A DNA stretch of 44,513 nucleotides, from the IMG/VR virus record IMGVR_UViG_2703718788_000013, one strand, 5' to 3'. The first letter of the stretch is position 1. The number at the start of each line of letters is the position of its first letter. The notes beneath the pieces were generated by a model that was given only the letters and a program-made list of their open reading frames with translations, was not told where the DNA came from and ran no database searches. Source of the DNA: a virus. Its lineage: Duplodnaviria; Heunggongvirae; Uroviricota; Caudoviricetes. Below are positions 34,588 to 40,640 of this stretch, piece after piece. The position numbers were made by a program, and so were the translations under genes.

Positions 34588-34647
34588 TGAAAAACGTTTT
34601 ATGTGAAACCGCCTCAGGGCGGTTTTGTCGTTTCTGGAGCGAGAGGA

Positions 34648-37600
34648 ATGGGTAAAGGCAGCAGTAAGGGGCATACCCCGCGCGAAGCGAAGGACAACCT
34701 GAAATCATCCCAGCTGCTGAGCGTGATAGACGCCATCAGTGAAGGGCCGATTGAAGGTCCGGTGGACGGATTAAAAAGTGTGCTGCTGAACAGTACGCCG
34801 GTGCTGGACAGTGAGGGGAATACCAATATCTCCGGTGTCACGGTGGTGTTCCGGGCAGGTGAGCAGGAGCAGACACCGCCGGAGGGATTTGAATCCTCCG
34901 GTTCAGAAACCGTTATCGGTGCAGAATTAAAATATGACAATCCGCTCACCCGGACCATCACGTCGGCAAACATCGACCGTCTGCGCCTGACCTTCGGTGT
35001 GCAGGCACTGGTGGAAACCACTTCAAAGGGGGACCGGAATCCGTCGGAAGTCCGCCTGCTGGTTCAGATACAACGTAACGGTGGCTGGGTGACGGAAAAA
35101 GACATCACCATTAAGGGCAAAACCACCTCACAGTATCTGGCCTCGGTGGTGGTGGATAACCTGCCGCCGCGCCCGTTCAGTATCCGGCTGCGCAGGATGA
35201 CGCCGGACAGCACCACAGACCAGCTGCAGAACAAAACGCTCTGGTCGTCATACACCGAAATTATCGATGTGAAACAGTGCTACCCGAACACGGCACTGGT
35301 CGGCGTACAGGTGGATTCGGAGCAGTTCGGCAGCCAGCAGGTGAGCCGTAATTATCATCTTCGCGGGCGCATTCTGCAGGTGCCGTCGAACTATAACCCG
35401 CAGACGCGGCAATACAGCGGTATCTGGGACGGAACGTTAAAACCGGCATACAGCAACAACATGGCCTGGTGTCTGTGGGATATGCTGACCCACCCGCGCT
35501 ACGGCATGGGGAAACGTCTTGGTGCGGCGGATGTTGATAAATGGGCGTTGTATGCCATCGGTCGGTACTGCGACCAGTCGGTACCGGATGGCTCTGGCGG
35601 CACGGAGCCGCGCATCACCTGTAATGCGTACCTGACCACACAGCGCAAGGCGTGGGATGTGCTCAGTGATTTCTGCTCGGCGATGCGCTGTATGCCGGTA
35701 TGGAACGGGCAGACGCTGACGTTCGTGCAGGACCGGCCATCGGATAAGGTGTGGACCTATAACCGCAGTAATGTGGTGATGCCGGATGATGGCGCGCCGT
35801 TCCGCTACAGCTTCAGCGCCCTGAAGGACCGCCATAATGCCGTTGAGGTGAACTGGATTGACCCGAACAACGGCTGGGAGACGGCGACAGAGCTTGTTGA
35901 AGATACGCAGGCCATTGCCCGTTACGGTCGTAATGTTACGAAGATGGATGCCTTTGGCTGTACCAGTCGGGGGCAGGCACACAGAGCCGGGCTGTGGCTG
36001 ATTAAAACGGAGCTGCTGGAAACGCAGACCGTGGATTTCAGCGTGGGCGCAGAAGGGCTTCGCCATGTACCGGGCGATGTCATTGAAATCTGTGATGATG
36101 ACTATGCCGGTATCAGCACCGGCGGGCGCGTGCTGGCGGTAAACAGCCAGACCCGGACGCTGACGCTCGACCGTGAAATCACGCTGCCATCCTCCGGCAC
36201 CACGCTGATAAGCCTGGTTGACGGAAATGGCAATCCGGTCAGCGTGGAGGTTCAGTCCGTCACTGATGGCGTGAAGGTAAAAGTGAGCCGTGTTCCTGAC
36301 GGCGTTGCCGGATACAGTGTATGGGGGCTGAAGCTGCCGATGCTGCGCCAGCGCCTGTTCCGCTGCGTGAGTATCCGTGAGAACGACGACAGCACGTATG
36401 CCATCACCGCCGTGCAGCATGTACCGGAAAAAGAGGCCATCGTGGATAACGGGGCGCACTTTGACGGCGACCAGAGTGGCACGGTGAATGGTGTCACGCC
36501 GCCAGCGGTGCAGCACCTGACCGCAGAAGTCACCGCAGACAGTGGGGAATATCAGGTGCTGGCGCGCTGGGACACGCCGAAGATGGTGAAGGGCGTGAGC
36601 TTCCTGCTTCGCCTGACCGTGGCAGCGGACGATGGCAGTGAGCGGCTGGTCAGCACGGCCAGGACGACGGAAACCACATACCGCTTCACGCAACTGGCAC
36701 TGGGAAATTACAGGCTGACAGTCCGGGCGGTAAATGCGTGGGGACAGCAGGGCGATCCGGCATCGGTATCGTTCCGGATTGCCGCACCGGCAGCACCGTC
36801 GCGGATTGAGCTGACGCCGGGCTATTTTCAGATAACCGCCACGCCGCATCTTGCGGTTTATGATCCGACGGTACAGTTTGACTTCTGGTTCTCGGAAAAA
36901 CGGATTGCTGATATCAGGCAGGTTGAAACCAGCGCGCGTTATCTTGGTACGGCGCTGTACTGGATAGCCGCCAGTATCAATATCAAACCGGGCCATGATT
37001 ATTATTTTTACGTTCGCAGTGTGAACACCGTTGGCAAATCGGCATTCGTGGAGGCTGTCGGTCAGCCGAGTGATGATGCATCAGGCTATCTGGATTTTTT
37101 CAAAGGCGAGATAGGGAAAACCCATCTGGCTCAGGAGCTGTGGACGCAGATTGATAACGGTCAGCTTGCGCCTGACCTGACTGAAATCAGGACGTCCATA
37201 ACGGATGTCAGCAATGAAATAACACAGACCGTCAATAAGAAACTGGAAGACCAGAGTGCAGCGATCCAGCAGATACAGAAGGTTCAGGTTGATACAAATA
37301 ATAACCTGAACAGCATGTGGGCAGTGAAGCTGCAGCAGATGCAGGATGGACGCCTTTATATTGCGGGTATCGGTGCCGGTATTGAGAACACCCCCGACGG
37401 CATGCAGAGTCAGGTGCTGCTGGCGGCAGACAGGATTGCGATGATTAATCCTGCGAATGGCAACACAAAGCCGATGTTTGTTGGTCAGGGCGATCAGATA
37501 TTCATGAACGACGTGTTCCTGAAGCGTCTGACGGCCCCGACCATCACCAGCGGCGGCAATCCTCCGGCATTTTCCCTGACACCGGACGGGCGCCTGACGG

Positions 37601-38145
37601 CGAAAAACGCTGATATCAGCGGTAACGTGAATGCGAACTCAGGAACGCTCAACAATGTCACGATAAGTGAGAACTGTACGATTAAGGGCATGCTGGAGGC
37701 GACCCAGGTCAGAGGGGATTTCGTTAAAGCTGTATCAAAAGCCTTCCCGAAAAAAGTCGGTACGTGGGGTAACACGGAAACACCAGACGGTACGGTTACA
37801 GTCACCATCAGCGATGATCATAACTTTGACCGTCAAATCATTATTCCGCCCATTATTTTTAACGGTATAGCGTATACCGATCCGGGGAGCGGAAATAACC
37901 CCGGAGGCACGCGATACACGGGTTATGGTTTTGAAGTTCGCAAAAACGGCGTATTAATCGCATCCAGAGAAACTAAAGGGGCCATTCCCGGTAGTTACAG
38001 TGCGGTTATTGATATGCCGGGTGGCAGGGGAAGCGTCACTCTGGAGTTTAAGATTTACCAGAAAGGCAATCAGGGGGCAGGCAATATCACCGACTGTACG
38101 GTGATTGTGACCAAAAAAGCGGCTTCCGGCATCAGTATCCGTTGA
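34648..38145 (+). CDS. J: Central tail fiber / host specificity protein J
   Basis: 1165 aa from ATG 34648 ([20 protein letters not shown]...); lambda gpJ-like for about 950 aa, then a C-terminal region that does not resemble lambda J. Confidence 0.95.
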
Positions 38146-38166
38146 AATATTTATAACCCGATAACG

Positions 38167-38190
38167 GGCGCCAGAAATGGCGCCTTTTTT
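38167..38190 (+). terminator. Intrinsic terminator after J
   Basis: GGCGCC AGAAAT GGCGCC followed by TTTTTT. Confidence 0.7.
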
Positions 38191-38205
38191 ATTTGTGGAG
38201 TGAGT

Positions 38206-39519
38206 ATGGCAGTACAGATTTCAGGTGTACTGAAAGATGGTGCAGGTAAGCCGATACAAAACTGCACCATTCAGCTAAAGGCCAGACGTAACAGCACCAC
38301 GGTGGTGGTGAACACGGTGGCTTCAGAAAACCCGGATGAAGCCGGGCGTTACACAATGGACGTTGAGTACGGTCAGTACAGCGTCATTCTGTTGGTGGAG
38401 GGATTTCCGCCGTCACATGCCGGGACCATCACCGTGTATGAAGATTCTCAGCCGGGTACGCTGAATGATTTTCTCGGTGCCATGACGGAGGAGGATGTCC
38501 GACCGGAGGCACTGCGCCGTTTTGAACAGATGGTGGAGGAGGCAGCGCGTCACGCTGAGGAGGCGAAGAAGAATGCCGGAGAGGCAGAGACGTCAGCGAG
38601 GAATGCGGGTATATCAGCCGGCCAGGCGGAAAAGAGTGCAGTAAATGCTGAGACTTCAGCAGGGGATGCATCGGAGTCAGCCCGGCAGGCGACGGAAAGT
38701 GCAGCCTCAGCAAAGCAGTCAGAGGATGCGTCCTCGTCCTCGGCTTCTGCGGCCGCTCAAAAAGCCAGTGAGTCATCACAAAGTGCAGCAGAAGCTGAAT
38801 TGTCAAGAAAGACGGCAGAAAGTGCAGCCGGTAATGCATCCAGGGATGCAACGACCGCAGCAGAAAAAGCCCGGGAGTCAGCAGAAAGCGCACAGTCAGC
38901 GGAACAAAGCAGGATAGCGGCGGAAGAGGCCGTAAACCGAATCCCCACCGTGGTGGGACCTCCCGGGCCAAAGGGGGAACAGGGGCCCGCTGGCCCTCAG
39001 GGGCCGAAGGGTGATAAGGGAGAGCGTGGTGACACCGGCCCTGTCGGGGCAACCGGCGAACGGGGACCGAGAGGAGATACAGGTCCGGCAGGCCCGCAGG
39101 GGCCGAAAGGCGACAGGGGGGAACGGGGAGAGACCGGTCTGACGGGAAGTACAGGTCCACAGGGGCCAAAGGGAGATACCGGTGCAGCAGGCCCGGCAGG
39201 CCCACAGGGACCGAAAGGAGAAACAGGAGCGGCAGGTCCGGTGGGGGCTACCGGACCTCAGGGGCCGAAGGGAGACCCGGGCGAGACACAAATCCGTTTT
39301 CGTCTGGGGCCGATGAGCATTATTGAGACAAACAGCTATGGCTGGTTCCCGGATACAGATGGTGCGCTCATCACCGGACTGACCTTTCTTGACCCCAAAG
39401 ATGCCACACAGGTTCAGGGGATGTTTCAGCATTTGCAGGTCAGATTTGGTGACGGGCCGTGGCAGGATGTTAAGGGGCTGGATGAAGTGGGCAGTGATAC
39501 AGGCAGAACAGGAGAATGA
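38206..39519 (+). CDS. stf: Side tail fiber protein (lambda Stf-like N-terminus, collagen-like Gly-X-Y repeats)
   Basis: 437 aa; N-terminal about 90 aa resemble lambda Stf ([26 protein letters not shown]...); long GPxGxxG repeat tract between residues about 245 and 350. Confidence 0.85.
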
Positions 39520-39520
39520 C

Positions 39521-39790
39521 ATGAACATACTAAAAAAACTTATGCAGCGTCTGTGCGGTTGCGGAAAGCATGATGGCCGTGAACACGGGCAGTCACTTAC
39601 AGCACAACTGCGACTGGGGCCGGCAGACATCCTGGAGTCAGATGAGAATGGTATTATCCCGGAGCAGGCCATGGTAATCACTCAGGTGGTGATACTGGAT
39701 GCGGATAAAAAGCAGATACAGTGCGTGGTAAGACCGCTGCAAATTCTGCGTGCTGACGGGACGTGGGAAAATATTGGCGGGATGAAGTAA
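39521..39790 (+). CDS. Hypothetical 89-aa protein downstream of stf (tail fiber assembly position)
   Basis: ATG at 39521, two bases after stf stop; ORF-track 39389..39790 in frame. Confidence 0.5.
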   Translation: MNILKKLMQRLCGCGKHDGREHGQSLTAQLRLGPADILESDENGIIPEQAMVITQVVILDADKKQIQCVVRPLQILRADGTWENIGGMK

Positions 39791-39806
39791 CCCGACAGTT
39801 TCACAA

Positions 39807-39830
39807 AACCGGAGTCCGGCTCCGGTTTTT
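39807..39830 (+). terminator. Intrinsic terminator at end of tail module
   Basis: ACCGGAG TCCGG CTCCGGT followed by TTTTT. Confidence 0.7.
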
Positions 39831-39999
39831 GTGTTGCAATGTCCGGGGGATATTTGTTAAGTAGATGACAGAGGAGCTAATTTAACAGGGAGATAAATTA
39901 ATGCCGATAAATCTGACATCTTATTTGGGGTTACAGGGGGCGAAAGTTGTCCCGGCAGTTGTTTTTTCTAAAATTTAGTCTTGTTGGGGAAAATGACAT

Positions 40000-40590
40000 A
40001 TGCCATTGATAACATCCAGCCTTTCATCAAATGTTGCTTTGCAGAGTATTGAAATATTACGTGAAGCTGCCAGACAAAACCTGATTACGAAAGCTATTAC
40101 TATAAATGGGCAGAAAGTTGGTATTCATTATTATCACCGCCCTGACGTTTTTCTAGTTTCTGGTTGTAAGGATGGGATGTTAAAAACATTATTAGAGTTA
40201 GGGTTAAATGGTAGCAATGAGTCAGCCAAAAGGCTTCGTTCATGGCAAATTTCCTCTGTAATTGATACTCATCTGAGTTTTTTACCATTAGGTATATGCT
40301 ATAAAATACTTTCAAGTTCTTTTCCTGTACATTCGGAAGAGGTTTTTTTTCCAGAAGAACATCTCAAGTGTCCAATAATATTAGATGCTCCAGATAATGG
40401 TGTTTTTATAAAGAACTCTGTAAGTGCAAAAGTTTGTAACCTATATGATAAAAATGCAATGTTAAAGTTAGTTATATCTGGTTCTCCACATCCATTAAGT
40501 AGAGAGCCAATAACAGAATCAATGATTATGAGAAAAGATGAATGTTATTTTGATCCCAAAACAGAGTCTTTTGTTGTAAATGATGTTTAA
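40000..40590 (+). CDS. nleG: NleG-like type III effector (U-box E3 ubiquitin ligase family)
   Basis: 196 aa in AT-rich DNA; C-terminal region HLKCPIILDAPDNGVFIKNSVSAKVCNLYD...SPHPLSREPIT resembles NleG U-box domain as remembered. Confidence 0.6.
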   Translation: MPLITSSLSSNVALQSIEILREAARQNLITKAITINGQKVGIHYYHRPDVFLVSGCKDGMLKTLLELGLNGSNESAKRLRSWQISSVIDTHLSFLPLGICYKILSSSFPVHSEEVFFPEEHLKCPIILDAPDNGVFIKNSVSAKVCNLYDKNAMLKLVISGSPHPLSREPITESMIMRKDECYFDPKTESFVVNDV

Positions 40591-40640
40591 TTTTTTTATT
40601 GGTGTTACTTTTAGTGGACTAAGTTGAAGGAGTGCGATAA

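Follow-up and report, generated by a model that had tools for sequence, protein, structure and literature searches.

An EPclA-class collagen-like side tail fibre gene and a stand-alone PfC-domain partner gene in a lambdoid tail module

The tailed-phage record IMGVR_UViG_2703718788_000013 in IMG/VR (Duplodnaviria; Heunggongvirae; Uroviricota; Caudoviricetes) consists of 44,513 nucleotides (nt) of DNA, referred to here as the window, and encodes at positions 38206-39790 a collagen-like tail fibre followed by an open reading frame (ORF) of 89 amino acids (aa), here called ORF89. The two genes are almost certainly an EPclA-class side tail fibre and a partner encoding a free-standing paralogue of its terminal domain, PfC. 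The gene pair is already known and is ordinary for Escherichia coli lambdoid and Shiga toxin (Stx) prophages, since the EPclA architecture has been published and homologues were annotated around the year 2000 (933W L0122 and VT1-Sakai H0003 for ORF89). The features of the pair are as follows.

38206..39519, plus strand: fibre gene, EPclA-type collagen-like side tail fibre of 437 aa plus stop codon (from the ORF, Pfam and relatives)
38206..38604, plus strand: PfN domain, aa 1-133 (PF08400, Pfam E 8.6e-69)
38605..38955, plus strand: PCoil, Ala/Ser/Glu-rich stalk, predicted trimeric coiled coil, aa 134-250 (from composition, periodicity and PMC3368898)
38956..39288, plus strand: collagen domain (Col), 37 uninterrupted Gly-X-Y triplets, aa 251-361 (PF01391)
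39292..39483, plus strand: fibre PfC domain, predicted trimerisation domain and distal knob, aa 363-426 (PF06820, Pfam E 3.9e-34)
39510..39523, plus strand: coupling junction AGGAGAATGAcATG, comprising the ORF89 Shine-Dalgarno sequence, the fibre stop codon, a 1-nt spacer and the ORF89 start codon
39521..39790, plus strand: ORF89, stand-alone PfC-domain protein (PF06820, phrog_576)

The presence of PF08400, PF01391 and PF06820 in one protein bears out the original prediction of a side tail fibre whose collagen tract is genuine, while the C-terminus that had been described as short and unrelated is in fact a defined and experimentally studied domain. The fibre gene starts at an ATG with GGAG at 38197-38200 (an in-frame GTG lies two codons upstream), and an 11-aa tail and a TGA stop codon, ending at 39519, follow the PfC domain. 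Fibre aa 1-94 match residues 1-94 of the "Tail fiber protein" chain in PDB entries 9E7M/9MGH (E 7.4e-52). In the Ur-lambda tail-tip structure the collar domain of the side fibre contacts gpV and gpM (PMC12617516), and the first ~94 aa of the window fibre are the counterpart of the lambda Stf collar and, by analogy, would dock on the tail tip in the same way. Judged by sequence, the N-terminus is lambda-Stf-like, and the shaft and tip are not; Pfam gave no PF03406 or gp37-like match in the fibre, the distal part of which is Col and PfC. The 117-aa PCoil contains 30% Ala, 20.5% Ser and only 6.8% L, I, V, M and F combined, with Ala autocorrelation peaks at lags of 7 and 14 residues, and its DNA carries 27-nt repeats spaced by 63, 84 and 105 nt, all multiples of 21. 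Proline occupies 18 of the 37 X positions in the collagen tract. The PHROGs matches of the fibre are tail-fibre families; its DNA is 100% identical to that of a prophage in E. coli strain 377323_2f, where the product is annotated as "prophage tail fiber N-terminal domain-containing protein", and the protein is 94% identical, gap-free, to VT1-Sakai H0004, downstream of which lies H0003. The protein displays the sequence features of EPclA: PfN, a PCoil of ~116 aa almost devoid of Leu, Ile and Val, a single uninterrupted Col and a C-terminal PfC. On the minus strand, two ORFs at 38429-39205 (258 aa) and 38896-39681 (261 aa) lie over the PCoil/collagen region; GC-rich repeat codons poor in stops usually give rise to such frames, which are probably not genes. 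A comparable antisense "hypothetical protein" has been annotated in phage phi24B (vb_24B_37c).

The architecture PfN-PCoil-Col-PfC was described for EPclA proteins of 437 aa, with a 116-aa PCoil and a 111-aa Col, in about a dozen prophages of the Sakai and EDL933 strains (Ghosh 2012, PMC3368898, Table 2). In the same work recombinant EPclA (ECs2717) was a hinged, dumbbell-shaped trimer 55-62 nm long, its Col was a true collagen helix with a melting temperature of 42 C and quick refolding, its PCoil was a trimeric coiled coil, and recombinant PfC alone trimerised and allowed quick refolding of the collagen helix (PMC3368898). A trimeric state and a collagen triple helix are therefore expected for the window fibre by analogy with EPclA copies more than 90% identical to it.

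The triplet run, put originally at about 35 triplets within 38950-39290, measures 37. It had been described as encoded by highly repetitive GC-rich DNA, and the second half of that description holds: GC content is 69.8% in the tract and 50.4% in the window. Its repetition is modest, Tandem Repeats Finder reporting a single array of 45 nt x 2 with 80% matches, and a unit of ~43 nt recurring five times with copies 65-77% identical. The tract had also been named a likely site of repeat expansion or contraction, and the suggested comparison of triplet number among related prophages showed that it is not invariant, although it is not hypervariable either. Among 77 distinct complete fibres from IMG/VR, 59 are 437 aa long and have exactly 37 triplets, a further three have 37 in proteins of different length, and shorter runs of 8, 15, 26, 27, 30 and 36 triplets also occur; a Gly substitution breaks the run in a few, and a 38-triplet run was seen only in partial loci or in loci of the related EPclB type. 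In the clearest variants a recurring motif lies at the junction: the first GPQGPKGD is joined to the last in the fibre with 8 triplets, one GPVGATG to the other in that with 15, and two neighbouring GPQGPKGD to each other in that with 30. Such junctions are consistent with diverged repeats inside the tract having recombined unequally, or slipped, from time to time, in agreement with the range of 63-144 aa given for the tract in PMC3368898 (Tables 2-3). The tract is thus polymorphic with a strong mode at 37 triplets, and is not a rapidly switching contingency locus.

The ATG of ORF89 lies 1 nt past the fibre TGA, with AGGAG at 39510-39514. PF06820 matches ORF89 at aa 28-89 (39602-39787) with an E-value of 4.9e-34 and 117 bits against a cut-off of 25, over profile positions 1-64 of 64, and phrog_576 matches it at positions 1-89 of 89 (E 8.4e-59). 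The domain is preceded by a 27-aa N-terminal extension (39521-39601) and is 34% identical at the protein level to the fibre's own PfC. Even at E<=10 no Tfa/Caudo_TAP match was found, PF06820 being the only family. The prediction that an 89-aa ORF, not a lambda-type Tfa, follows the fibre is therefore upheld; the ORF is no longer anonymous, and is by sequence a diverged free-standing paralogue of the fibre's last domain. It is 96% identical to a RefSeq "phage tail fiber C-terminal domain-containing protein" and 92% identical to the phi24B homologue ADN68460.1, annotated as "phage fiber C superfamily; contains a RLGP motif". A sequence search of PDB returned no match for ORF89 or for PfC. The ORF89 frame (+1 relative to the fibre) is open for 46 codons upstream of the start, at 39383-39520, with an additional ATG at 39482, and for this reason versions of 89, 102, 129 or 135 aa are annotated across records (lambda_2B8 gp24, VT1-Sakai H0003, phi24B ADN68460.1); the ATG at 39521 has the better Shine-Dalgarno sequence. 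Residues 12-15 of ORF89 are CGCG (39554-39565), a motif kept from E. coli to Citrobacter rodentium, with neighbouring His residues that are not, and might possibly form a metal or disulphide site. The N-terminal LCGC was considered as a lipoprotein signal and rejected by eye, the hydrophobic stretch being too short and interrupted by Gln and Arg.

Linkage between the two genes is strict. Of 79 IMG/VR loci picked by the fibre PfC alone, 75 had room downstream and all 75 contained ORF89, at full length and with a 1-nt spacer in 71; conversely, the spacer was 1 nt in 78 of 80 loci picked by ORF89, and both spacer exceptions that were checked have an IS66-family insertion in place of the fibre. 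One IMG/VR contig (L069, 2392-3963) carries such an element directly upstream of an intact ORF89, at the fibre's usual place; the IS66 assignment was made by recognition of three ORFs, including a 523-aa transposase-like ORF, and no family search was run. The arrangement of Shine-Dalgarno sequence, stop codon and ATG (...CAGGAGAATGAcATGAA...) is kept in 121 of 123 junctions of related loci. All 55 distinct full-length ungapped copies of ORF89 are intact, and the ratio of nonsynonymous to synonymous proportions (pN/pS), a simple pooled pairwise measure on closely related, recombining sequences, is 0.19 for ORF89 overall, 0.11 for its PfC part and 0.33 for its N-terminal extension, with 0.26 for the fibre's own PfC. 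ORF89 is thus under purifying selection. EPclB fibres have an unlike N-terminus, yet their Col-PfC (PfC 94% identical) and their ORF89 match those of the EPclA type, and the cargo past the terminator that follows ORF89 varies from phage to phage; Col-PfC-ORF89 therefore travels as a unit across differing N-termini and downstream cargo.

The family is narrow. An exhaustive profile search gave only 81 matches among 1.84 billion representative proteins, mostly fragments of the same E. coli proteins; the named search matches come from E. coli, E. albertii and Citrobacter rodentium, and a scan of GTDB species gave E. albertii and two outliers. The outliers, a 725-nt contig of Xanthomonas pisi DSM 18956 with a 92%-identical ORF89 (L163) and a contig of a Clostridiales metagenome-assembled genome with a complete EPclA fibre after an E. 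coli Lom-like ORF (L164), are most likely contamination or mis-binning. Three multi-repeat profile matches (P0138, P0166 and P0170) look spurious. The only credible distant relative among the profile matches is P0145 (565 aa), in which four tandem PfC-like modules (...VVVLDAD...ILRVRQADGTWKEIPA...), each after a short Gly-X-Y stretch, precede a collagen tract, a layout suggesting that a fibre can carry several PfC-like knobs stacked along it.

Evidence at the protein level comes from the supplement of a phi24B cryo-electron microscopy preprint, which lists peptides from purified virions. The part of that supplement that was examined contains the peptides ADGTWENIGGMK (C-terminal) and VITQVVILDADKK, with a count of 3 each, assigned to the ORF 39891-40295 ("gp59_start"), which is 92% identical to the window ORF89. 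The same part gives a count of 47 for the last identifiable tryptic peptide of the unfused phi24B fibre (only TGE follows it), and holds no junction or upstream-frame peptide (WAVIQAEQ..., MNILK...). In the lists examined, the ORF89-type peptides show translation and co-purification, and not location. Taken with the linkage, the junction and the selection, these homologue peptides establish that ORF89 encodes a real protein. Published expression lists give ECs0845 and ECs2940 as raised ~5-fold in spinach root exudate, and a glyphosate microarray study includes Z1484/ECs1229.

The surroundings of the pair in the window are those of a tail module bordered by effector genes, as listed below.

34603-38145, plus strand: gene for the J tip protein (all J Pfam domains found)
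38166..38185, plus strand: terminator-like GC hairpin and T-run in the spacer between J and the fibre gene (8 pairs, 6 of them GC, then TTTTTATTTG)
39805..39833, plus strand: intrinsic-terminator-like hairpin, CCGGAG-TCCGG-CTCCGG, and T-run
40000-40590: NleG, effector cargo
40641-43013: 790-aa pentapeptide-repeat and SopA/NleL-like HECT E3 ligase, effector cargo
43267-44259: NleC, effector cargo

The spacer between J and the fibre gene measures 60 nt (38146-38205) and holds only the terminator-like hairpin, lom being missing there. An ORF of at least 180 aa precedes the fibre in 110 of 119 related loci, called Lom only where the annotation was checked, as in VT1-Sakai and lambda_2B8; the exact hairpin sequence of the window stands directly 5' of the fibre in only five related loci. 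Downstream of ORF89, the fold of 39795-39845 has an energy of -20.5 kcal/mol (z -4.3), and none of 200 shuffled sequences was equally stable. This terminator-like hairpin closes the tail module ahead of low-GC effector cargo, GC content falling to 38.8% downstream from 50.4% for the whole window. The type III effector cargo (40000-44259) lies directly past it, and in strain 377323_2f a gene for an EspF-repeat protein and espJ come next after the effectors, followed by zinT.

We propose, as the probable explanation of the locus as a whole, that an EPclA-class trimeric side fibre and a conserved partner gene make up the distal part of a lambdoid tail module. The PfN collar, homologous to lambda Stf 1-94, would dock on the tail-tip complex as in Ur-lambda; the 117-residue Ala/Ser-rich heptad stalk would form a trimeric coiled coil and the 37 Gly-X-Y triplets a collagen triple helix, and the 64-residue PfC knob would self-trimerise and let that helix refold. 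The fibre PfC presumably contacts the cell surface; for the related phi24B fibre, the preprint on that phage argues against binding to BamA. Tract length would shift occasionally by deletion or duplication between diverged GPQGPKGD/E or GPVGATG repeats, with 37 triplets preferred. ORF89 would be translated separately, coupled to the fibre stop codon, and its product may form a small PfC oligomer of its own that is virion-associated or acts on adsorption or host range.

As to what ORF89 does, we tentatively favour, at rather less than even confidence, a separately translated, low-abundance, dispensable accessory protein of the distal Col-PfC module; in our view it does not act as a Tfa-like folding chaperone or as a silent recombination cassette. 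Several points weigh against this interpretation. The phi24B peptide counts are low (3) and the virion preparation also held non-structural contaminants; the main text of the preprint does not discuss the ORF89 homologue; the pN/pS measure is a simple one for such sequences; and an AlphaFold2 monomer model of ORF89, built from a 5-sequence alignment, is poor (predicted local distance difference test score 52.8, predicted template modelling score 0.36) and lends no structural support, the authors of the phi24B preprint likewise reporting no confident AlphaFold model for a PfC-type domain. Finally, the Sp5 homologue ORF68 (89 aa) is among the non-essential late genes, in contrast to the Sp5 fibre gene, which is essential (Mondal et al. 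2016, PMC5155283); any role of ORF89 is therefore accessory, or invisible on laboratory hosts. A bolder version, which we regard as possible but rather unlikely, makes ORF89 a structural partner, that is, a separate small trimer capping or stacking on the distal PfC or another virion site and setting or widening receptor specificity. It would then be a tip adaptor derived from a duplicated terminal domain, unlike Tfa or gp38-type partners, a description to which we give the same limited credence. The structural-partner reading is compatible with the phi24B peptides, the strict linkage and the purifying selection, which do not show it.

Four other explanations rank lower than the accessory protein. 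Mondal et al. (2016, PMC5155283) suggested that such a sequence may be an intragenomic reservoir cassette for fibre variation; it would be untranslated or incidentally translated. ORF89 is indeed homologous to the fibre's last domain and lies directly downstream of it, one database protein (P0067) fuses collagen triplets straight to an ORF89-type PfC, and deletions joining J to ORF89 exist (P0069). However, the two PfC copies are 52% identical in DNA with a longest common word of 9 nt, and are therefore without a substrate for homologous exchange; an ORF89-type PfC ends none of the 77 distinct complete fibres, and P0067 begins at the end of a 3.3-kb contig and may be an assembly artefact or a simple deletion. 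A cassette also sits badly with a Shine-Dalgarno sequence, an ATG and a 27-aa non-PfC extension kept under purifying selection, and with the detection of homologue peptides, and we consider it improbable. Equally improbable in our estimate is a functional analogue of Tfa, a chaperone needed to trimerise or fold the fibre C-terminus, even though ORF89 is a small gene at the place of tfa, with translational coupling to the fibre and strict linkage to PfC-ending fibres, and scarcity in virions would be consistent with a chaperone that largely departs. No Caudo_TAP similarity appears at E<=10, recombinant EPclA, Col-PfC and PfC trimerise without ORF89 in the constructs and Col-PfC refolds fast after heat (PMC3368898), and the non-essential Sp5 homologue next to an essential fibre gene (PMC5155283) argues in the same direction.

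A programmed +1 frameshift near the fibre stop codon could yield a minor fibre-ORF89 fusion with two tandem PfC knobs. The +1 frame, open for 46 codons upstream and overlapping the fibre 3' end, would permit it; the examined part of the phi24B supplement indicates that the proteomics search database contained such fusions, one annotated by its authors "Spike or just gp59?", and the distant protein P0145 carries tandem PfC-like modules. Nevertheless, Mondal et al. found no frameshift-inducing sequence (PMC5155283), the last tryptic peptide of the unfused fibre was counted 47 times in the part of the supplement examined, in which no junction peptide appears, and ORF89 has a strong Shine-Dalgarno sequence and ATG of its own in 121 of 123 junctions, so that a frameshift is very improbable. 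Least credible of all, by a shade, is a functionless remnant of a duplicated fibre 3' end carried along by linkage. Dispensability in Sp5 and the very narrow family (81 among 1.84 billion, with E. albertii and Citrobacter rodentium as the non-E. coli matches) would suit a relic, but a pN/pS of 0.11 in the domain, 55 intact copies out of 55 distinct full-length ones, nearly invariant translation signals, retention in both sipho- and podo-type phages and the homologue peptides all speak for a maintained protein.

Of 5426 complete E. coli genomes, 4886 have a match to the 1.8-kb region, but the match spans 80% or more of it in only 693. EPclA-type fibres are carried by the majority of lambdoid and Stx-converting prophages in pathogenic E. 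coli and probably affect which strains are within reach of new phages carrying Stx or effectors. A tip-adaptor role of ORF89, if real, would bear on Stx-phage host range. The fibre itself has already been characterised, and published work (PMC3368898, PMC5155283) already covers the gene pair, which is the canonical layout in prophages of E. coli and in Stx phages; no new kind of element is added. What is added here is the strict linkage, the near-invariant junction, the purifying selection, DNA too diverged for a homologous-recombination cassette, and the phi24B peptides.

The closest known systems are the EPclA fibres themselves (ECs2717; ECs2941/VT1-Sakai H0004), which have the same 437-aa length and the same order PfN-PCoil(116-117)-Col(111)-PfC; the window fibre differs from H0004 by ~26 substitutions, and the window prophage is without lom between J and the fibre. 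The pairs Sp5 ORF67/ORF68 (ECs1228 and the downstream ORF), 933W L0121/L0122 and phi24B gp61 with "gp59" (ADN68460.1) share the distal Col-PfC, with a 94% identical PfC, and their fibres are also trailed by an 89-aa PfC-only ORF across an identical 1-nt junction. What sets these EPclB fibres apart is the presence of two collagen domains, a Pf2 repeat and an N-terminal anchor of another kind, for podovirus tails. Lambda Stf resembles the window fibre in its homologous N-terminal collar, its position after J (and lom) and its nature as a trimeric accessory side fibre, but has a gp37-like shaft, Pf2 repeats and a gp37-like receptor-binding tip, whereas the window shaft would be coiled coil and collagen; likewise, lambda Tfa is a Caudo_TAP chaperone, whereas the downstream gene of the window encodes a PfC paralogue. 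More distantly, Streptococcus Scl1/Scl2 and Bacillus BclA also have a Gly-X-Y triple helix that lacks hydroxylation and is nucleated by a globular trimer next to it, and NCBIfam and PDB gave sub-threshold matches to Scl and BclA over the collagen tract, with scores far below the family cut-offs. The likeness to these proteins is limited to the Gly-X-Y tract; in the window fibre, the nucleating domain has another fold and size and is C-terminal.

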